Origin: an uncultured Nitrospiraceae bacterium
GTDB lineage: Bacteria; Nitrospirota; Nitrospiria; Nitrospirales; Nitrospiraceae
Direction of reading: 5' to 3'
NCBI GenBank assembly: GCA_963706325.1
Contig: CAVPLT010000006.1
Location: forward strand, 96,001-160,000
Length of the DNA: 64,000 bases
Positions 1 to 11,611 of this stretch are shown here, one piece after another. The first letter of the stretch is position 1, and each line of letters begins with the position of its first letter. A program made the translations under genes and the position numbers. The notes beneath the pieces were generated by a model. The model made no database searches. It was not told where the DNA came from and saw only the letters and a program-made list of their open reading frames with translations.

Positions 1-876
1 CTCGGCATGTCTTACAGCATCTCCAACGTGCTGGCGGAAGCCGGCCTCGACAACATCATGCGCTGGGTGCCCTTCACGATCGATGAACAAACGCTGCGCA
101 ATCGGATCAAGAACAAGATGGTGCGGCCCACGACCATCCCGCAATCCCTCGACGAACTGCAAATCGAGCAGGCCATCGCGCGCGAGGCCTTGCGGTTGGC
201 GTTGATTCACCATACCTCTCTCGCTACGGGGCTCAAAGGCGTCCAGCAGGAGCGCACCATTTCCGATGTGTTCGAACAGCGCACGTCCGGCAAGACCCTC
301 ATCGACATGTTGAAATTGGATCTGATCGTCGGCAGCGGCGGCATCTTGTCGCATGCGCCGCGCCGCATTCAATCCATGCTGATGATGGTCGACGCCTATG
401 AGCCGCTCGGCGTCACGACGCTGTCGGTCGACAGCATTTTCATGATGCCCCATCTGGGCGTCCTCTCCACCGTCAATGAACAGGCCGCCACCGACGTCTT
501 CGTGCGCGATTGCATGGTCTACCTGGGTACCTGCATCGCCCCGATCGGACAGGGCAGGGACGGAGAGCGCTGTACGGACTATGAAATCGCGCTGCCCGAC
601 GGACGCATCGAGAAAGGGACACTGAACTTCGGCGACCTCAAGCTATTTACTCTGACTCGAGAACAGCAGGCTCAGGTCACGCTTCAACCGATCAAACAGA
701 TTGATCTGGGCAAGGGTCCCGGGCAATCCTTGACCAGGACCGTCCAGGGCGGCGTCGTCGGCCTGATGCTCGACGGGCGGGGTCGTCCGCTGCAAATTCC
801 GAGCGATCAGGCGGCGCGAGCTGCAACCCTCATGCGATGGTACAAGGCGGTCGGATTGTATCCCACTGGGAGATGA
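1..876 (+). CDS. Glutamate mutase L (GlmL/MutL)-family ASKHA-type ATPase, 5'-truncated by the window edge
   Basis: Frame is open from base 1. Contains LIVGSGGILSHAP (ASKHA adenosine-type motif), LGMSYS near the start and C-terminal GGVVGLMLDGRGRP, as I recall for GlmL/MutL-family proteins. Confidence 0.75.
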   Translation, partial: LGMSYSISNVLAEAGLDNIMRWVPFTIDEQTLRNRIKNKMVRPTTIPQSLDELQIEQAIAREALRLALIHHTSLATGLKGVQQERTISDVFEQRTSGKTLIDMLKLDLIVGSGGILSHAPRRIQSMLMMVDAYEPLGVTTLSVDSIFMMPHLGVLSTVNEQAATDVFVRDCMVYLGTCIAPIGQGRDGERCTDYEIALPDGRIEKGTLNFGDLKLFTLTREQQAQVTLQPIKQIDLGKGPGQSLTRTVQGGVVGLMLDGRGRPLQIPSDQAARAATLMRWYKAVGLYPTGR

Positions 877-910
877 TGGGTTGCGGGTGGTAGATGTTCG
901 TCATTTTGGA

Positions 911-1029
911 GGTGACTCAAAACTCTGTGCAGCGAGGCCGCAAGAGGCGAGAGTCCCGGGTCGTATCCTTGGCGGTACGGAAGGAACTTGAGCAACTGAG
1001 AACGAAGCTGCAGGGCGTTTTCAGCAATC
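911..1029 (-). repeat. Structured intergenic repeat (family copy 1)
   Basis: Reverse complement reads GATTGCTGAAAACG..CGTTCTC..CGTACCGCCAAGGATACG..GCTGCACAGAGTTTTGAGTCACC, the same architecture as the copies at 7184-8054. Confidence 0.8.
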
Positions 1030-1037
1030 GGTGATTT

Positions 1038-2165
1038 ATGGCACATTCCTATACGCCCGGCCTCACGGTCGCCGAACGGACCACCGTTCGGCGTAGACGC
1101 ATCTTGCCCTTACCCGGAACGGTCCTGGTGAAGGTGGGGGACATGGTGCATGCGGATACGGTCGTCGCGCGCGCAGAATTACCCGGCAAGGTCATTCCGC
1201 TGAACCTCGCCAACCAGCTGGGCATTTCCCCGGACGAGATCAAGGACTACCTCATCAAGAAAGAACAAGACGCCGTACAAAAAGACGACGTGCTCGCCGA
1301 AAACAAACCCTTCATCAAATGGTTTAAGACTGAAGTCCGCTCGCCGATCACGGGTAGGGTGGAATCGATTTCTACCATTACCGGTCAGATCCTGCTACGG
1401 GAGCCTCCCAGGGTGCTTGAACTTCGCGGCTATATCGACGGCACTATTGCCGAGGTGCAGCCGGAGCAGGGCGTCACCGTTGAGGTTGGTTGTAGCTTGG
1501 TGCAAGGCATTTTCGGCATAGGCGGAGAGGTCAGCGGTGAATTAATCATGGGGGTGACGGCCCCGGACCAACCCTTACTGCCAGAGCAGCTGACACCATC
1601 CATGAAGGGAAAGATTGTGGTTGGAGGGGCTTTTCTGTCTGCCGCGACACTCGCACGCGCCAAAGAGATTGAGGTCGCCGGCTTGGTCGTTGGCGGCATT
1701 CACGACAAAGACCTGCGAACACTCCTCGGGTATGACCTTGGCGTAGCCATTACCGGCGCGGAGCAGGTAGGATTTACCTTGATTCTCACAGAAGGCTTCG
1801 GGACCATCCCGATGGCTCCCAAAACCTTTTCCTTGCTGTCTGCCCATGCTGGACACAAAGCGTCTATTTCAGGCGCCACCCAAATCCGCGCCGGCGTCAT
1901 TCGCCCGGAGATCATCATTCCTCAGACCTCACAGTCCGCCGGCTCCAGACCGGATCCTGTCGAACGCGAGGGGATTCAACTCGGTGATCCGGTGCGAATC
2001 ATTCGCGATCCACTGTTCGGCAAAATCGGAGCCGTGTCCGGCTTGCCACCGGAACTCAGAGCGATCCCGACCGAGAGCGAAGTCCGAGTCCTCGAAGTGC
2101 GTTTTCCCGATGGGACAAAGACCGTGGTCCCCCGCACCAACATCGAAGTGATCGAAGGAGCCTGA
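1038..2165 (+). CDS. Conserved hypothetical protein with barrel-sandwich-hybrid-like repeats and a C-terminal KOW-like motif
   Basis: 375 aa. VLVKVGDMV and EVRSPITGRV resemble biotinyl/lipoyl-type hybrid motifs; LGDPVRIIRDPLFGKIG is KOW-like. Co-oriented in the operon. Confidence 0.7.
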   Translation: MAHSYTPGLTVAERTTVRRRRILPLPGTVLVKVGDMVHADTVVARAELPGKVIPLNLANQLGISPDEIKDYLIKKEQDAVQKDDVLAENKPFIKWFKTEVRSPITGRVESISTITGQILLREPPRVLELRGYIDGTIAEVQPEQGVTVEVGCSLVQGIFGIGGEVSGELIMGVTAPDQPLLPEQLTPSMKGKIVVGGAFLSAATLARAKEIEVAGLVVGGIHDKDLRTLLGYDLGVAITGAEQVGFTLILTEGFGTIPMAPKTFSLLSAHAGHKASISGATQIRAGVIRPEIIIPQTSQSAGSRPDPVEREGIQLGDPVRIIRDPLFGKIGAVSGLPPELRAIPTESEVRVLEVRFPDGTKTVVPRTNIEVIEGA

Positions 2166-2170
2166 GCCGC

Positions 2171-3418
2171 ATGCCCTCTCTTCTGCGCATGGCGCTTGTC
2201 CTCACCGCTCTATTGACACTTGCGCCGCGGCTCCTTTGTGCCCAGGCAATCCTGCCCCCTCCGCAACAGCTACAGGTATTCGATACGCCCAGCGACGGGG
2301 GAGGCAGCCTCACCGCCACCTGGGCTGCTATTCCTTCCGAGAGTGCCACGGACAAATATCAGGTGTTGATGCACGAAGGAGGAGCGCCTCCAGCCCCCAC
2401 GGGATGGAAGGTGGTCGCCGAATTTCCCGCCAACAGTCACTACGTCCGCGAAACGAAGGCCGCTTGGTGGACGAGGCCAGGGACGCCGGGCGATCACGTC
2501 TATCTTATCAAGCACGGCAAGGGCATCGAATTAAAGCCGGGCCAGTCATATGCCGTGACCGTAGCGGCTGTGACCGGTCAGGAGCGGTCTATCGCCCAGC
2601 CGGTCCTAGCATCGACGGAACCGAACTGGATGAATTGGAATCAACTGAACAATCTCATGCTGGCACTCCTGTTCGGCGGGGTAGTGTTTTACGCCATCAA
2701 TCTAGCGAAACGAAAAGACATCTTTCTGCGACGCATTCCCGGCCTCGATGCCGTCGATGAAGCGATCGGTCGCGCCACGGAATTGGGCAAACCGGTGCTC
2801 TACATGACCGGGGCGCACGATATGAACGACCCCGCAACGATTGCTGCCGCGATCATTCTGGGCCGCGTGGCCAAAAAGGCCGCCTCCTACGAAACGGAAT
2901 TGCTGGTCCCGCATCGCGAACCCATCACCATGGCCGTCTGTCAGGAGATTACGAAGCAAGCCTATATGGAAGCGGGCAAGCCGGATCTGTTCAAGGACGA
3001 CGCCAACTTTTTCATTACCAGCGACCAATTCAGTTACACCGCCGCCGTGGACGGGATCATGCTCCGCCGAAAACCGGCGGCGAATTTTTTCATGGGCTCG
3101 TACTTTGCGGAATCGCTTTTACTGACTGAAACCGGCGCGAGCACGGGGGCCATTCAAATCGCGGGAACCGACTCCGACCATCAGCTCCCGTTCTTCGTCA
3201 CCACCTGCGACTACACCCTCATCGGCGAAGAGCTCTATGCCGCCAGCGCCTATCTCTCGAAAGAGCCGATCCAGGTCGGCACCCTGCGCGGACAAGACCT
3301 TGGCAAGGCCTTCATCCTAGGCGTCATCGGCGTAGGGACAGTAGTCGCCACCATCGCCGTCGTCACCGGCGCCGCCTGGCCGCAACTTCTCCTCGACCTC
3401 TTCAAGGATCTGAAATGA
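2171..3418 (+). CDS. Signal peptide + FN3-like domain + TM + DUF6754-like domain protein
   Basis: 415 aa. N-terminal signal peptide; DTPSDGGGSLTATW beta-rich domain; TM near residues 160-178; then LRRIPGLDAVDEAIGRATELGKPV, typical of DUF6754; C-terminal TM. Confidence 0.7.
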   Translation: MPSLLRMALVLTALLTLAPRLLCAQAILPPPQQLQVFDTPSDGGGSLTATWAAIPSESATDKYQVLMHEGGAPPAPTGWKVVAEFPANSHYVRETKAAWWTRPGTPGDHVYLIKHGKGIELKPGQSYAVTVAAVTGQERSIAQPVLASTEPNWMNWNQLNNLMLALLFGGVVFYAINLAKRKDIFLRRIPGLDAVDEAIGRATELGKPVLYMTGAHDMNDPATIAAAIILGRVAKKAASYETELLVPHREPITMAVCQEITKQAYMEAGKPDLFKDDANFFITSDQFSYTAAVDGIMLRRKPAANFFMGSYFAESLLLTETGASTGAIQIAGTDSDHQLPFFVTTCDYTLIGEELYAASAYLSKEPIQVGTLRGQDLGKAFILGVIGVGTVVATIAVVTGAAWPQLLLDLFKDLK

Positions 3419-4065
3419 TTTTTCTTCGCCGGCAGTTGCCGCTGCTCATTACGATGGTGACCGGATTAGTCATGGCCGCGCAATACTACGTGCCCCACCC
3501 GGCTTCAGAGCAACTCCTCACCACCGTCACCAAATGGCTCCAGATCATCGGTGGGTTCGCGCTCGTTCTTGGCATTACCAGCCTGTTCCATGTGCATGCC
3601 GCGAAAATCCGGCGCAAGGAAGCGGGCTGGGGGTACAGCCTGGTGCTCTATGCCGGCATGCTCGGCACCACCGTGGTGGGGCTTTGGAACGGCGGGAAAG
3701 AAAGTATCGAGGGAGCCATGACGTCGTTCGGCTGGGTCTACTCCTATACCCTCGTGCCGCTGCAAGGCACCATGTTCGCCATTCTGGCGTTCTTCATCGC
3801 CTCTGCGGCTTATCGCTCGTTTCGCGCCCGCAGCCGGGAAGCCGCCGTGTTATTGATCGCCGCGGTGATCGTCATGATGGGCCGGGTTCCGCTGGGTGAA
3901 TACCTCCTGCCCATCAGCGGCGACTTATCGAGTTGGATTTTGAATGTGTTGAACGCGTCCGTCCGGCGCGCCATTTTGATCGGAGTCAGCCTGGGGGCCG
4001 TGGCCCTCTCGTTCAAGATCATCTTCGGCGTGGAACGGTCGTACCTGGGCGGCGGCAAGGAATAG
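3415..4065 (+). CDS. Conserved integral membrane protein (about 6 TM)
   Basis: 216 aa, strongly hydrophobic. ATGA overlap with the upstream stop. FFIASAAYRSFRARS motif. Confidence 0.8.
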   Translation: MIFLRRQLPLLITMVTGLVMAAQYYVPHPASEQLLTTVTKWLQIIGGFALVLGITSLFHVHAAKIRRKEAGWGYSLVLYAGMLGTTVVGLWNGGKESIEGAMTSFGWVYSYTLVPLQGTMFAILAFFIASAAYRSFRARSREAAVLLIAAVIVMMGRVPLGEYLLPISGDLSSWILNVLNASVRRAILIGVSLGAVALSFKIIFGVERSYLGGGKE

Positions 4066-4069
4066 TCCG

Positions 4070-4915
4070 ATGAGTTTCGCTGAGCGCATGTTACGGATCG
4101 ACCGGCGGATCATCTTTCTGGTGATCGGGCTTTGCACGCTGTTCCCCCTGTTATTTCCGGTGGGATTGCCCATCCGGATTTCATCTGAGGTTCGGGGCGT
4201 CTACGACTACATCGACAATTTGCCTGAAGGGTCCGTCTTTCTACTGTCCCTGGATTTCGACCCAGCCTCGAAACCTGAGCTTTATCCCCAGGCCATCGCG
4301 ATTTTACGCCATGCTTTCCACAAGAACTTGCGAGTCGTCGCCATGACGCTGTGGGTATCCGGAACTGGGCTGGCCGACCAGATCGTGTCCCAAACCGCCA
4401 AGGAGGCAGGCAAGGAAAACGGCAAGGACTACGTATTCCTGGGCTGGAGCCCAGGCGGCAGCGCCGTTATTTTGAATATGGGGCAAGACTTGTACAATGC
4501 GTTCCCAACCGACTATGGGAACAGGTCCACGAAAGGCCTTCCCGTCCTGGCCGGCGTGCAGAGCCTACGGGATGTGACCTATGCCGTGAGTCTCGGCGCG
4601 GGCAATCCAGGAGTCGAAGCCTGGTACGTCTTCGGCAAGGACAAGTATAAGTTCGAACTTGGCGGCGGCTGTACCGGCGTCATGGCGCCTGGCCTCTATC
4701 CGTTGTTGCGGAGCGGGCAGATCAACGGACTGATCGGCGGCCTGCGCGGGGCGGCAGAGTATGAAACGCTCATTGGCCAGAAGGGCAAGGCCGTCGCCGG
4801 AATGGACGCCCAATCGGCCACCCACCTCGCCATTATCGTGCTCGTGACGATTTGCAATATTTTTTACTTTACGGTGCGGCGGCAACAGCGCCGGCAGGAA
4901 CAGATGGGATCGTAG
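4070..4915 (+). CDS. Conserved membrane-anchored protein (N- and C-terminal TM, central soluble alpha/beta domain)
   Basis: 281 aa. AAGGA RBS. DRRIIF N-terminal TM, GLIGGLRGAAEYE motif, C-terminal TM. Confidence 0.8.
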   Translation: MSFAERMLRIDRRIIFLVIGLCTLFPLLFPVGLPIRISSEVRGVYDYIDNLPEGSVFLLSLDFDPASKPELYPQAIAILRHAFHKNLRVVAMTLWVSGTGLADQIVSQTAKEAGKENGKDYVFLGWSPGGSAVILNMGQDLYNAFPTDYGNRSTKGLPVLAGVQSLRDVTYAVSLGAGNPGVEAWYVFGKDKYKFELGGGCTGVMAPGLYPLLRSGQINGLIGGLRGAAEYETLIGQKGKAVAGMDAQSATHLAIIVLVTICNIFYFTVRRQQRRQEQMGS

Positions 4916-4920
4916 GCGCT

Positions 4921-5676
4921 ATGGATCTTCCGTTTGAAGTCATACTCGGCGGGTGGCTCGCCACAGGATTGACTCTCTTCATCCTGTCGTTCCTGTATGA
5001 GGACAATCCGTTGTTTAAACTCGCCGAGCATCTATACGTCGGCGTCTCGCTAGGCTACACGATCGTCAAAACCTATGACACGGTTGTCATGACCCTGATC
5101 CTGCGTCCCATCCTCGACAAGGGAGAATGGTCGTTGCTGATTCCTGTCGCCATCGGTACCCTGATGTTGACGCGATATGTCCCCAAAGCCGCCTGGCTCT
5201 CGCGTTATGCCTTTTCCTTCATTGTCGGCGTCGGAGCAGGGCTGGCGATTCCCCGGACGATCTCCTCGTTCATTTTGAAACAAATTGAGGATACGGTTCG
5301 TCCGCTGCTGACCATTGTGCCGGGGGAGGGCGTCACCTTCACCTATTCACTGCTGAACCCTGCCAGCAATTTGAATGGAATCATCATCCTGATCGGCGTG
5401 GTGTCGGTTCTCTTCTACTTCTTTTTCTCGGTTGAACATTCCGGCCCAGGGAAAATGGTCGCACGGGCGGGGATCGTGTTTTTGATGATCTCGTTCGGAG
5501 CGGCCTTCGGCTACACCGTCATGGCCCGCATGTCCCTCCTGATCGGCCGGCTCACGGACCTGATTGAATTCTCCGACGCCTCCTACAGCCGTCCCACGCT
5601 CTGGCTCACGCTGCTCACCATCGCCACACTGTTTCTATTGAGCCGACGCGGCGGCGCCCATCCGCCGGAACGCTAG
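4921..5676 (+). CDS. Conserved integral membrane protein (about 7 TM)
   Basis: ATG 5 nt after the upstream stop. SFLYEDNPLFKLAEHLYVG and FGAAFGYTVMARMSLL motifs. Hydrophobic throughout. Confidence 0.8.
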   Translation: MDLPFEVILGGWLATGLTLFILSFLYEDNPLFKLAEHLYVGVSLGYTIVKTYDTVVMTLILRPILDKGEWSLLIPVAIGTLMLTRYVPKAAWLSRYAFSFIVGVGAGLAIPRTISSFILKQIEDTVRPLLTIVPGEGVTFTYSLLNPASNLNGIIILIGVVSVLFYFFFSVEHSGPGKMVARAGIVFLMISFGAAFGYTVMARMSLLIGRLTDLIEFSDASYSRPTLWLTLLTIATLFLLSRRGGAHPPER

Positions 5677-5891: not shown

Positions 5892-5921
5892 TTGCACAGC
5901 GGAAGTTGGCTTCGTTAGAAT
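5892..5921 (+). promoter_or_regulatory. Candidate sigma70 promoter for the MEMO-family gene
   Basis: TTGCAC-N18-TAGAAT, ending 10 nt before the ATG at 5932. Confidence 0.4.
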
Positions 5922-5931
5922 GCCCCTCATT

Positions 5932-7182
5932 ATGGAATCAACCACGACCATCGCCGCCAAAGATCCCGCGCAGTATCCGCTGCTACGCAACCTTCAATTT
6001 TCACCGATCAAGGAAGGGGAAGAGCAGTACGTCGTGCTCTGGGACCCGACCGGCTTGAGCAAGGAACGACTGGTCCTGCCGTTGAATTATTTTTTCATCG
6101 TGCAGCATCTGGACGGCGAACATACCCTGCAGGACATCGGCGCCATCTATCTGAAACGGTTCGGCGAATTCCTCATGCCGAATAAAGTCGAGCAATTGCT
6201 CGCCGATCTGAATACCAAATTATTCTTGGAGGGGGAGCGGACCGAACAGGCCAAACAACAGGCCCTGGAGACCTATCGCCAAGCCCCTTCTAGGCCTCCT
6301 CAGTTTGCCGGCCGGAGTTATGAAGCCGACGCCGCCAAGCTTCGCGCCCAGATCAAGGGGTTCTTTACCTCGAAGGAAGGACCGGAGATCAAAGCGTCCG
6401 AACATGCGGGCAAACCCATCAAGGGCCTTGTCGCACCGACCTACGAACTCAAGCATGCGGGTCCGATCTATGCCTGGGCTTATAAGGAGCTGCAGGAAGC
6501 TCAGCAACCGGACCTGTACGTCCTTATCGGCACCGCCCATTCCGGGCTGGAACAATTGGTCACTGTGACCGACAAAGACTTCGAAACCCCCCTGGGAATC
6601 GTCAAGGTTGAACGAAGCATCACCGATCAGCTGCGCGAGCAGATTCCTTCCGCCTTCACCGAAGAACTGGCACACCAAAATGAACATGCATTGGAATTTC
6701 AGCTGCCATTCCTGCAGGAGAGCCTCGGCCAAGAGAAGCCCTTCACGATTGTCCCGATCCTTACCTCGTTTTCAGCGGATAGCCTGCGCGATCCGCAAAT
6801 CCGGGCACAGGTCGAGACGTTTCTTCAGACATTGAAAGAGGCGTTGTCCGCGTCCGGCAAACAATATTGCGTCCTCGTTGGAGCGGAACTGGCCCATATC
6901 GGTATGCGCTACGGCGATTCGGCTCCCCCGACCGATTTTTCGTTTCACCGTTGCATGCAAACCGATCTCGAAATGCTCAAACATGTCGAGAACCGCGACC
7001 CGGAAGAATTCGCCAAATTCATTCAAAAAGAAAGCGATCAGCGTCGTATCTCCGGCTTCTCACCGATCTACTCGTTGCTGCGTTTGATTCAGGCCGAAAC
7101 CGGGCAGGTGTTACGTTACGACCGCGGCATTACCGATCAGTACAATTCGACGGTGACATATGCCAGCATGGCCTTCTTCTGA
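5932..7182 (+). CDS. AmmeMemoRadiSam system protein B (MEMO1 family) with N-terminal PqqD-like extension
   Basis: FAGRSYEAD, GTAH, DFETPLG, HQNEHALEFQLPFLQ, LAHIG and VTYASMAF follow the MEMO1/AmrB pattern. N-terminal QHLDGEHTLQDI is winged-helix-like. Alternative start at 5920. Confidence 0.8.
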   Translation: MESTTTIAAKDPAQYPLLRNLQFSPIKEGEEQYVVLWDPTGLSKERLVLPLNYFFIVQHLDGEHTLQDIGAIYLKRFGEFLMPNKVEQLLADLNTKLFLEGERTEQAKQQALETYRQAPSRPPQFAGRSYEADAAKLRAQIKGFFTSKEGPEIKASEHAGKPIKGLVAPTYELKHAGPIYAWAYKELQEAQQPDLYVLIGTAHSGLEQLVTVTDKDFETPLGIVKVERSITDQLREQIPSAFTEELAHQNEHALEFQLPFLQESLGQEKPFTIVPILTSFSADSLRDPQIRAQVETFLQTLKEALSASGKQYCVLVGAELAHIGMRYGDSAPPTDFSFHRCMQTDLEMLKHVENRDPEEFAKFIQKESDQRRISGFSPIYSLLRLIQAETGQVLRYDRGITDQYNSTVTYASMAFF

Positions 7183-8054: not shown

Positions 8055-8467
8055 TAATAGGCGGGAACGCCGCCGGCCGGGTCAGTATATCTGGTAGGCG
8101 TAGTGAAGTGATCCCAAGTCGTGACGACACCTGCTTCAAAGTACACACGAAAGTCGGCAGTGACGCAGGCATCTCTTCCGATGGGCGGGTAGAGCCACAC
8201 CTGCACACGTCTGCCTTGATCTTGTATCTCAGTCTTACAGACCGGCGCTCCGAGGGCAAGATACACCTGGTCTTGATTCATGCCTCGGATGATGGTTCCG
8301 CGGTCGATCGTCCGCCGCACGTCCTCTGGGTAGGACGGATACTGGTCTCTCATGAGGCGATGGCGCTCCGTGTCACACCCCGATAAGCTTATGGCTAGCA
8401 GGAGAAGACTATGGAAAAGGACCCGTTGAAGCCACACCAACGAAGCGCTTCCGAGGAGAGGGCTCAT
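8054..8467 (-). CDS. Hypothetical lipoprotein
   Basis: Hydrophobic stretch ending LSGC (lipobox). GMNQDQVYLALGAP resembles BamE/SmpA-like small lipoproteins. Confidence 0.7.
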   Translation of the reverse strand: MSPLLGSASLVWLQRVLFHSLLLLAISLSGCDTERHRLMRDQYPSYPEDVRRTIDRGTIIRGMNQDQVYLALGAPVCKTEIQDQGRRVQVWLYPPIGRDACVTADFRVYFEAGVVTTWDHFTTPTRYTDPAGGVPAY

Positions 8468-8994
8468 AGCACCTGCTCCGGCAATTGCCCGCAGAACAAC
8501 TCGACCGTTTTTTGAAACAGGAAGAGGGCCGTGTCCTGAGGAGAGGCCGCAAGGGCGGCATTGGCAGCCTCTTCAATGTCGGAACGGCAAATCTGAAAAC
8601 GACGAACAACGTAGAGCGCGTCGTCTAAATCAAGTTCAATGCCGCGACGAAGTTTCGCGATCACGTAATCCACCGGCGCCAAAAGGCGGATGCGGAGATT
8701 CGGACGAGATAGGAGGTCTGTGGCGCGGTCTCGATACCCAGGCGGCATCGCCACAATAGACCATCCAGAAATGTTCTGCTTCAGATCCGCCGGCACACCT
8801 TCAGCAGAAAGAAACGCGACAGGCGGATGGAGCGGACCAGTAAGTTCGCCGTCCACATCGTTCGTCTAGCGTTCACGAAATCCATAATATTGCAACGCAA
8901 GGGTGCCGCCGGGGAGCAAGTCGATCGGTTGACCGGTGGTCTGGACGAATTGCTCCAGAAGGAGAATTGGGCGTTCACCGGTGATGGTAGGCAA
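8464..8994 (-). pseudogene. Nucleotidyltransferase (DUF6036/AbiEii-like) interrupted by an in-frame TAG at 8866-8868
   Basis: Minus strand reads ..GGTLALQYYGFRER*TNDVDGEL.. in one frame. Has the GG..A..G..R.T.DVD NTase signature and downstream AKLRRG..DL.DA. Probable TTG start overlaps the upstream gene's 3' end. Confidence 0.75.
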
Positions 8995-9310
8995 ATTGTA
9001 GCGCCTCGGCAAAAGTCCGATAGTCCCGAAAATCGATCGGGCCCGAATCATCGGGAAGCGGCCTACGGTTGAACAAAAATGTAATCAGGCGACGATAGTG
9101 CGCGTACCAGCGGCAGGCATTCAGATAGACCGCCTCAAATTCCCCGTCATCTCGCCATAGCGACCAATCGGGCTGGTCATTCACGATGATTTCCAGCCAG
9201 AGAATGCGGCGTCCACGAGGGGTACCGAGGGCCTCTGCGACAGAGTCAGTATTCAGATAGGCAGGAAGCAACTTAAATGACGTGGACGATCCATTCGACG
9301 GAACAAACAT
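8975..9310 (-). CDS. Hypothetical protein, possible antitoxin partner of the NTase
   Basis: 111 aa ORF overlapping the start of the NTase pseudogene. No recognised motif. Confidence 0.6.
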   Translation of the reverse strand: MFVPSNGSSTSFKLLPAYLNTDSVAEALGTPRGRRILWLEIIVNDQPDWSLWRDDGEFEAVYLNACRWYAHYRRLITFLFNRRPLPDDSGPIDFRDYRTFAEALQFAYHHR

Positions 9311-10081: not shown

Positions 10082-11611
10082 ATGCCTGAACAAGCGGTTC
10101 TCAATGTCGATCTGGCGGATGTCTGGGAGGAACGCGGCCGGAAAAAGTTCATCCGGACGATAGCCTGGGGCGACGAAGTCACCGTGTTGAAACAACTCAG
10201 CACGCACCTCGAAGTCGGCATCACCGTGTTCCGCCAAAAGCCCGACGGCAGCATCCTTCCCGAGTCCATCACCGGCTATATCGAACCAGCTAAATCTTCC
10301 GGCATCAAAGTCGCCGAGCTGGTCAAGCCCGTCTCAGACAATCGCGTCTTGAAGGTGAATTTCGTCGATGTGCAGCAGGGCGACGGCTCAGTGATCGAAA
10401 CGCCGGACGGGAAAATTATCCTGGTCGACGGGGGTGACAATCAAATGTTCGCGCGGTACCTGGCGGGACGATTTCGCGACACCAGCGCGCAGAGCCCCAA
10501 GGATGTCGAATGCATCGTGGTCACGCATGGGGATGCCGACCATTTCGCCGGCCTCAGCGAGATTCTCAAATCGGAAACGAACAAGGTGAAGCGTAAACGC
10601 CTCTTCATGCAACCCAAGCGGGTCTATCACAACGGAATCGTGAAGCGTCCCAGCAAAATGAACAACAAAACCGTTCCCGACACGAAGCTGCTGGGGCCGA
10701 CCAAGACCGTGGGGGGCCAACTCTACATCACGGGACTGGAGGACGATCTGCTCACCGTCGCGGACAGCGAGATGAACGAGCCGTTCCGCGAATGGAAAGA
10801 CACATTGAACACTTACAACAGCCGCAGCCCGGTCTCATTTCGGCGCCTCCAACTTGGAGATACGCAGGCCTTCGATTTTCTTAACCACGACGATTTACAC
10901 ATCGATGTACTGGGACCAATCACCGCAGAGGTTGATGGAAAACCGGCGCTGCGGTTTCTGGGTGAACCGCCCAAAGGCCCGCGCATCGGCCACGACTCCC
11001 TGAACGACAGCGATGAGGGTTTCACCGGCCATTCCGCCTCCCATACCATCAACGGACACTCCATCGTCCTCCGGCTGAGTTACGGCGGCTTCAGCTTTTT
11101 GTTTTCAGGCGATCTCAACGATGAAGCCAGCCGCTTCCTGGCCCGCGAGCACAACAAGGGCAGCCTTAACCTACGATCCGAAGTGTTCAAGGTACCCCAC
11201 CATGGATCGGCCGATTTCTCCGGCGCGTTCCTTCAGGTCGTGTCGCCCATCGTGAGCGTGGTGTCGAGCGGGGACGAAAGCGCGCGAAAAGAATACATCC
11301 ATCCGCGAGCCACCCTCATGGGAGCCTTGGGCAAATGGTCGCGAGTGCCTGAGCCACTCATTTTTGTGACCGAGTTGGTCGCGTTCTTTAAAACAGAAGG
11401 CCCGTGTCGCCTGCAGGACGACAAGGCCGCCAAAAAGCGTGGGCCGTTCTATGGATTCAGCCGCACCGCCTATGGCCTCGTGAAAACACGCACCGACGGC
11501 ACGCGCCTTTTCGTCTATACGGATAGCGGCAATATCCAGATGAAAGAGGCGTATGCCTATGCCCTCGATACCTCGGGGGTGCCGCAACCAGCCGAGGTGA
11601 TTCGCGCATGA
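10082..11611 (+). CDS. ComEC/Rec2-type metallo-beta-lactamase-fold hydrolase with an extra N-terminal domain
   Basis: Strong GAGGAGG RBS. FVDVQQGD, ILVDGG, THGDADH, FLFSGD, KVPHHGS and HP motifs. Confidence 0.85.
   Translation: MPEQAVLNVDLADVWEERGRKKFIRTIAWGDEVTVLKQLSTHLEVGITVFRQKPDGSILPESITGYIEPAKSSGIKVAELVKPVSDNRVLKVNFVDVQQGDGSVIETPDGKIILVDGGDNQMFARYLAGRFRDTSAQSPKDVECIVVTHGDADHFAGLSEILKSETNKVKRKRLFMQPKRVYHNGIVKRPSKMNNKTVPDTKLLGPTKTVGGQLYITGLEDDLLTVADSEMNEPFREWKDTLNTYNSRSPVSFRRLQLGDTQAFDFLNHDDLHIDVLGPITAEVDGKPALRFLGEPPKGPRIGHDSLNDSDEGFTGHSASHTINGHSIVLRLSYGGFSFLFSGDLNDEASRFLAREHNKGSLNLRSEVFKVPHHGSADFSGAFLQVVSPIVSVVSSGDESARKEYIHPRATLMGALGKWSRVPEPLIFVTELVAFFKTEGPCRLQDDKAAKKRGPFYGFSRTAYGLVKTRTDGTRLFVYTDSGNIQMKEAYAYALDTSGVPQPAEVIRA

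Follow-up and report, generated by a model that had tools for sequence, protein, structure and literature searches.

A conserved Nitrospira operon encodes a putative GlmL-family ATPase together with a DUF6754 membrane-protein block

In ATP-binding cassette (ABC) and energy-coupling factor (ECF) importers, one shared ATPase module serves one or several membrane modules and is sometimes unlinked from them; to our knowledge, the known ATP-driven transporters use ATPase folds other than ASKHA. GlmL, an ASKHA protein, is described as a chaperone reactivating glutamate mutase (PMC4682846), and the α subunit of glycerol dehydratase reactivase is reported to combine an Hsp70-like ATPase with a swivelling domain and to act by ATP-driven transient subunit exchange (PMC7674605). 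Here, we analyzed an operon at the start of a 64,000-nucleotide stretch of DNA, termed the window (C6:96001-160000 of genome G000), in which a GlmL-family gene stands before a block of membrane-protein genes including a member of the DUF6754 family. The host genome, 96% complete, belongs to Nitrospira, the genus name also borne by the close relatives of one of the membrane proteins (g5). Functional coupling of the ATPase and membrane modules is strongly supported, because both are co-retained when unlinked, and physical coupling is what we infer. Our leading, still tentative, reading is a transport complex in the membrane whose switch would be a chaperone-like ATPase that docks transiently. 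The features are as follows, in window positions unless the contig is named.

Promoter: C6:94591-94619, predicted sigma-70-type, TTGACT-17-TATAAT, 11 of 12 consensus matches
g0: C6:94658-95032, + strand, upstream of the window; 124-residue soluble protein of no known family
g1: from C6:95029, its 3' part at 1..876, + strand; 615-residue long-form GlmL/MutL-family ASKHA ATPase
g2: 1038..2165, + strand; 375-residue soluble protein with an HxYxPGL peptide, a barrel-sandwich arm, a swivelling β/β/α domain and a KOW domain
g3: 2171..3418, + strand; 415 residues with signal peptide, external FN3 domain, transmembrane (TM) helix, cytoplasmic Rossmann-like DUF6754 domain and second TM helix
g4: 3415..4065, + strand; 216-residue six-TM membrane protein of no known family
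g5: 4070..4915, + strand; 281 residues with TM helix, predicted periplasmic 215-residue domain and TM helix; no known family
g6: 4921..5676, + strand; 251-residue polytopic membrane protein of no known family

Compared with GlmL/MutL, and likewise with the ornithine-cluster protein Or-4 (NF040744), g1 belongs to the same Pfam family and carries the same ASKHA motifs, but it has a longer C-terminus, scores under the NCBIfam cut-offs, lacks a glmS/glmE context and has a fixed partner, g2. The likeness to the dehydratase reactivase is one of make-up: ATPase and swivelling domain are here split over g1 and g2, and fused in 6 genomes, whereas g2 adds a barrel-sandwich and a KOW domain, the partner genes encode membrane proteins, and the reactivase was absent among the 50 fold matches listed for g2. 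With ABC and ECF importers the system shares an energising module serving one or several membrane modules, sometimes unlinked; in contrast, its ATPase is of the ASKHA and not the P-loop type, family searches with g3-g6 gave no ABC/ECF permease or binding protein, and the ATPase is nearly absent from membrane samples. DUF6754 is catalogued in Pfam, with g3 a full member, whereas g0, g2 and g4-g6 reach no family cut-off. In the literature searched, which left most subscription journals and bioRxiv supplements outside, DUF6754 was named in no paper, and no description of the gene set or system was found. Because no described system matches, the gene set appears to be new in make-up.

Operon structure and conservation

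An earlier note on this DNA had described six co-oriented genes with a cut-off 5' part, the last five separated by 5 nucleotides or less and including an ATGA overlap. All six genes were recovered at the positions given above (the first open at its 5' end), and the spacing was confirmed as 5 nucleotides for g2-g3, −4 for g3-g4 (ATGA), 4 for g4-g5 and 5 for g5-g6. The upstream flank supplied the rest of the 615-residue g1, which begins about 970 nucleotides 5' of the window, as well as the seventh gene, g0, whose stop overlaps the g1 start, again as ATGA. The promoter site lies 38 nucleotides 5' of g0; sigma-70-type sites with at least 10 of 12 matches were present upstream in 36/39 Nitrospirota loci, versus none of 41 control stretches 5' of the MEMO gene. 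Based on this site and the ATGA-linked g0/g1 pair, we place the operon start at g0, so that the operon most likely comprises seven genes. No repeats were found in the intergenic stretches, and g0 was present in 64 of the 94 loci scanned.

The seven genes stand in identical order in 14/14 loci of the family, so the arrangement is not due to chance. A scan of species-representative genomes yielded at least 622 matching stretches, the best 80 of which (36 from Nitrospirota, 44 from other groups) were examined; these 80 include Planctomycetota with the anammox Brocadiales, Latescibacterota, WOR-3, Poribacteria, Binatia, Methylomirabilis and Edwardsbacteria. Wherever the locus left room, g4-g5-g6 followed g3 (67/67), and g0-g1-g2 preceded g3 in nearly all Nitrospirota loci (27/28) and in most of the others (23/37), the gene order thus holding across phyla. 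No DUF6754 locus came from viral contigs or plasmids. Locus L112 carries g1 and g4-g6 in pieces in one assembly, probably owing to sequencing frameshifts.

The membrane block is tandem-repeated in 7 of the 44 non-Nitrospirota loci (in one, g3 only), and in six of these loci the copies share 27-72% identity; g2 is mostly single-copy. Such diverged tandem modules beside a mostly single-copy g2 point to one energiser for several membrane modules. Tandem duplications of single genes were seen for g5 (L053:11064-13078 and L088:11408-13182) and for g3 (L102:9671-11971).

Co-occurrence was followed through g2 and g3. When g2 was missing from the fetched locus, it was found elsewhere in the genome in 23 of 24 cases. 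In evenly drawn genome samples, both genes were present in 23 of 151 Nitrospirota genomes and neither in the other 128; carriers make up 22 of the 23 family genomes besides G000 and 0/127 outside the family. The 201 Planctomycetota genomes divide into 53 with both, 3 with g3 only, 2 with g2 only and 143 with neither, and in this phylum the two genes frequently lie at separate sites. No p-value is attached to these counts, as genomes of kin are not independent; the stronger point is that g2 and g3 are both kept when they lie 250-530 kb apart on one contig. Genome G018, of the same genus and 99% complete in 230 contigs, contained neither gene, either by loss or through an assembly gap. Median identity to the window proteins was 74% for the g1 core, 60-69% for the g2 domains and 45-46% for g4-g6; within g3, DUF6754 (63%) is the best-conserved part of the membrane module and FN3 (27%) the least conserved part.

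The ATPase, its soluble partner and the membrane proteins

Residues 19-494 of g1 match PF13941 (MutL/GlmL) with 425.6 bits (cut-off 27), but the protein scores under all three GlmL-type NCBIfam cut-offs (NF040745, 229.9 < 475; NF040744, 203.5 < 600; TIGR01319, 156.9 < 204.05). It is 27% identical to GlmL of E. coli O157, with a C-terminus about 120 residues longer than in GlmL, and 64-94% identical across phyla. In a tree of 34 sequences with one true GlmL as outgroup, the 28 stand-alone long-form g1 proteins form one clade (support 0.865). The motif D23CGSTTTK is kept in each of the 69 sequences, out of 79, in which the site is covered, and D301xGGxTTD and G435SGG in 79/79; we take these to be the ASKHA phosphate-1, phosphate-2 and adenosine motifs, respectively, on the strength of which g1 would hydrolyse ATP.

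The statement of the earlier note that no mutase subunit is visible held well beyond the window. Glutamate mutase genes were not found directly upstream of the operon, and profile searches of the host genome recovered no GlmE, methylmalonyl-CoA mutase or EutB, positive controls being matched for each. The B12 aminomutase PF09043 and the B12 dehydratase large subunit PF02286 were not found in the host genome, the control genomes giving no match for either profile. Eleven B12-binding-domain matches lie within open frames of 309-1229 residues. Among 50 carrier genomes drawn from the 80 carrier loci (44 non-Nitrospirota, 6 Nitrospirota), GlmE was over the cut-off in none, with a matching positive control; weak GlmE-profile matches occurred in six, by eye five methylmalonyl-CoA mutase-like and one ABC ATPase-like. 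The E. coli O157 chromosome, conversely, has GlmL and GlmE and no g2. Judged from sequence, the database label 'methylaspartate mutase' is a mislabel for this ATPase.

The predicted model of g2 (predicted local distance difference test, pLDDT, 85.3) contains the barrel-sandwich and KOW parts that had been proposed as lipoyl-like and KOW-like, together with a swivelling β/β/α domain that had been missed. In this model, residues 152-295 match the swivel domain of phosphotransferase system (PTS) enzyme I with Z 9.2 and a root-mean-square deviation (rmsd) of 2.7 over 106 aligned residues; further matches were RraA (Z 8.7), the Spt5 KOW domain (Z 8.7), NqrA (Z 7.9) and HlyD (Z 7.3). Foldseek gave no match at E≤0.001, and the Pfam barrel-sandwich match was below threshold. 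Hydropathy indicated no membrane anchor. g2 is probably no phosphocarrier of the PTS enzyme I type, because its swivel domain has no conserved His, the only His at ≥80% conservation being H3 (H222 occurs in 58 of 91 sequences). As regards a lipoyl or biotinyl attachment site, the only Lys at that level, K74, lies before the hybrid motif and, judging its position from sequence, not at the hairpin tip; an invariant Asp of the swivel domain aligns with RraA.

An HxYxPGL peptide at the g2 N-terminus is invariant and of low confidence in the lone g2 model; it may serve g1 as a docking tail. In 6 genomes (L139-L144) g1 and g2 are fused into divergent proteins of 854-990 residues, two of them reaching a contig end; these fusions lack the HxYxP peptide and any match to the g2 KOW domain. 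As far as such sequence evidence goes, g1 very probably binds g2. The fusion paralogues carry a repeated barrel-sandwich part in genomes that also keep an ordinary g2, and similar frames of ~840-990 residues are found in several Planctomycetota.

The exported FN3-like domain joined through a TM helix to DUF6754, as the earlier note had it, was borne out for g3. The protein is a full member of DUF6754 (PF20539, 385.8 bits, cut-off 27), and in its predicted model (pLDDT 92.1) the FN3 fold is clear (Z 11.4), the Pfam fn3 match being below threshold. The DUF6754 domain appears as an α/β domain with six alternating strands, residues 189-363 of which match Sir2A (Z 10.1, rmsd 4.0) and phosphoglycerate kinase (Z 10.0; rmsd range 3.5-4.0); as FN3 matches filled the searches, this fold was only partly covered. 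Hydropathy and charges place FN3 outside and DUF6754 inside, and related g3 forms reach 781 residues.

For g0, g2, g4, g5 and g6 Pfam returned no family over the cut-off; in these family searches the membrane proteins gave no match to a described complex, DUF6754 being the one family found. Family searches of the operon gave no P-loop ABC ATPase, known permease or binding-protein family; when solved structures were searched by sequence, g1, g2, g3 and g5 returned nothing at E≤0.001, and profiles of g3 and g5 no solved relative beyond a weak FN3 match. In g5, which has 2048 relatives at E≤0.001, we found two hydrophobic segments instead of the single anchor claimed before, with the 215-residue domain placed outside by hydropathy and charge. 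This placement agrees with L041:1255-2598, where the outer loop from TM3 to TM4 of g4 has taken up a g5-like domain and a normal g5 follows. At a strict hydropathy threshold g6 shows 4 hydrophobic segments (7 helices are predicted for its probable N. moscoviensis orthologue), and its invariant polar residues are Q121, T199, R203 and R210. Altogether, g3-g6 are predicted to contribute ~15-17 membrane helices, and their assembly as an inner-membrane complex is highly likely. A paralogy of g3 and g5 in inverted orientation was not supported, the profile score of 19 lying inside block-shuffled controls (16.5 ± 2.7, maximum 22.7); nor did comparison support homology of g4 with g6 or internal repeats.

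Expression and proposed mechanism

In Nitrospira moscoviensis, NITMOv2_3303-3297 are the probable orthologues of g0-g6, based on order, length, predicted helices, the RefSeq label 'methylaspartate mutase' of 3302 and a MEMO gene at 3296. Transcripts of all seven are reported (mean 52-269), none changing significantly across three time points (PMC6606698). The mineral-medium proteome of PMC9381531, a table of 2,247 rows that appears abundance-sorted, places 3301, 3300, 3302 and 3298 at rows 454, 534, 685 and 764, with intensity-based absolute quantification (iBAQ) values of 0.7-2.5e8 and log2 changes on nitrite depletion of 0.07-0.38 that were not scored as significant; the table has no entry for 3299 or 3297. 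In a second proteome g2 (3301) and g1 (3302) rank 635 and 638 (PMC8407350). The five membrane-proteome columns of the same source give unique peptides of 2/4/6/6/4 for g3, 2/3/4/4/4 for g5, 0/2/0/0/2 for g2, 0/0/0/2/1 for g1, 0/0/1/0/0 for g6 and none for g0 and g4, beside 30/78/94/55/89 for AtpD and none for MEMO; these membrane counts are small and the two comparison proteins hand-picked. Together, the data describe a system that an autotroph growing with no organic substrate keeps producing at a steady level, with g1 and g2 near 1:1, and suggest no more than a loose attachment of g1 and g2 to membranes. The N. marina supplement yielded only the DNA-repair MutL and is uninformative, since its annotation differs.

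We propose that g3-g6 would form a four-subunit inner-membrane complex, most likely a small-solute transporter, and that g1 and g2, helped by g0, would act as a cytoplasmic ATPase-partner pair. This pair would make brief contact with DUF6754 on the cytoplasmic side, spending ATP to switch or reset the complex, in the mode of a B12-enzyme reactivase and not as a fixed ABC-type motor. The parts of this proposal differ in strength: action of the pair on the membrane complex is likely, whereas DUF6754 as the contact point is an evenly balanced call, and so, at about an even chance, is the movement of a solute. Transport is favoured because of the many predicted helices with invariant polar residues, the tethered periplasmic domain and the tandem modules sharing one ATPase module. 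The earlier suggestion that the ATPase powers or regulates a membrane complex is thus upheld as to functional coupling; as the ATPase is apparently not stably attached and FN3 is the least conserved part, regulating or resetting fits better than a fixed motor. Taken further, and again tentatively, the system may represent a new primary-transporter class, or switchable membrane machine, in which an ASKHA ATPase runs a reactivase-like bind-hydrolyse-release cycle on subunits unrelated to known permeases, GlmL being one offshoot of a wider family. If true, this would add a novel type of ATP-driven system, a membrane machine run by an ASKHA protein, found in nitrite oxidisers and anammox bacteria, key organisms of the nitrogen cycle.

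Several observations weigh against this proposal. The searches turned up neither a transported substrate nor a binding-protein fold nor a conserved catabolic neighbour, and the near-absence of g1 and g2 from membrane samples would fit no physical contact as well. The steady levels with and without nitrite and the consensus housekeeping-type promoter are unlike substrate-induced uptake. The system was not found in the 127 other Nitrospirota or in G018, and is therefore dispensable in these close kin. ATP hydrolysis by g1 is a prediction from its motifs.

Alternatively, the complex could signal across the membrane, the outer domains of g3 and g5 sensing a cue that DUF6754 relays to a g1/g2 switch with KOW as output. 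The receptor-like build of g3, with a variable FN3 and a conserved cytoplasmic domain in forms of up to 781 residues, agrees with this, as do the loose association of g1 and g2 and their steady expression; we nevertheless regard signalling as unlikely, since a receptor would not need two polytopic subunits carrying invariant polar residues, no regulator family recurs by the operon across phyla, and the g2 swivel domain lacks a conserved His. A role in envelope biogenesis or export, with the complex either flipping or secreting a lipid, a polymer or a protein or serving as an envelope scaffold, would make g1 an actin-fold adaptor, presumably analogous to those of the PilM, FtsA or EpsL type. 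The housekeeping-like promoter, the single copy, the high identity of g1 across phyla and a barrel-sandwich arm like that of membrane-fusion proteins (HlyD) would suit such a role, which the patchy occurrence, including loss in close relatives, the lack of an outer-membrane or envelope gene recurring alongside across phyla and the missing membrane anchor of g2 render improbable.

A membrane-bound enzyme is also conceivable, if rather doubtful: g1 would be ATP-dependent and catalytic (hydantoinase/oxoprolinase- or kinase-like), DUF6754 would bind a nucleotide cofactor, and a metabolite would be modified during or after uptake. The Hydantoinase_A match of g1 (28.5 bits, cut-off 22.9) covers 47 residues and is limited to the shared ATP motif; the resemblance of DUF6754 to the NAD-binding fold of Sir2 is offset by Z values of about 10 to two unrelated Rossmann folds, which may reflect a common arrangement; and the Asp shared by g2 and RraA stands beside a single conserved Cys across g2-g6, hence no iron-sulphur or haem motif, and a lack of metabolic neighbours. 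An ordinary role of g1 in reactivating a B12 mutase encoded elsewhere, with an incidental place by membrane genes, is largely refuted and in our judgement very improbable. PF13941 membership, the 27% identity to true GlmL and the weak matches on methylmalonyl-CoA mutase-like genes in several heterotrophic carriers speak for it, against the lack of GlmE, methylmalonyl-CoA mutase and EutB in the host genome, of GlmE over the cut-off in the 50 carriers and of g2 in an E. coli that has both GlmL and GlmE. For the switched transport complex that we favour, Nitrospira offers what most carriers do not, namely cultured strains, a compact single-copy operon and published proteomes in which the proteins are made, so that the system is purifiable now.

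Neighbouring genes

A MEMO/AmmeMemoRadiSam protein B gene with an N-terminal PqqD-like part lies 3' of the operon (window 5920-7182). It follows the operon in 27/36 Nitrospirota versus 0/44 other loci, and is lineage-specific, not core. Upstream of g0 stand a DUF4124 gene, two unknowns, a Rieske ferredoxin and an Mrp/ApbC ATPase, the last four of which occur in only 5 of 14 family loci; the ATPase, the ferredoxin and the two small unknowns span C6:91925-93969 (L001:1925-3969). Additional copies of the 126-residue upstream unknown lie on C3 and on C7, the C7 copy being split in two.

Across phyla no neighbour family recurs widely, except generic ABC ATPases, a secreted-protein family (8 loci) and an extra two-TM gene. 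This gene of ~145 residues lies 5' of g0 in 15 non-Nitrospirota loci (L104:5562-6008, L101:1499-1939, L157:3112-3573 and 12 more); it matched no Pfam family in the 2 copies tested, was not found in the host genome, and is likely an accessory eighth component. Further along the window, small open reading frames on the minus strand at 8464-9310 resemble by eye a nucleotidyltransferase-like/partner pair. A 509-residue open reading frame at 10082-11611, which by eye we take to be a ComEC/Rec2-like protein of the metallo-β-lactamase fold, carries an HGDADH motif and has relatives in 4 Nitrospira loci.

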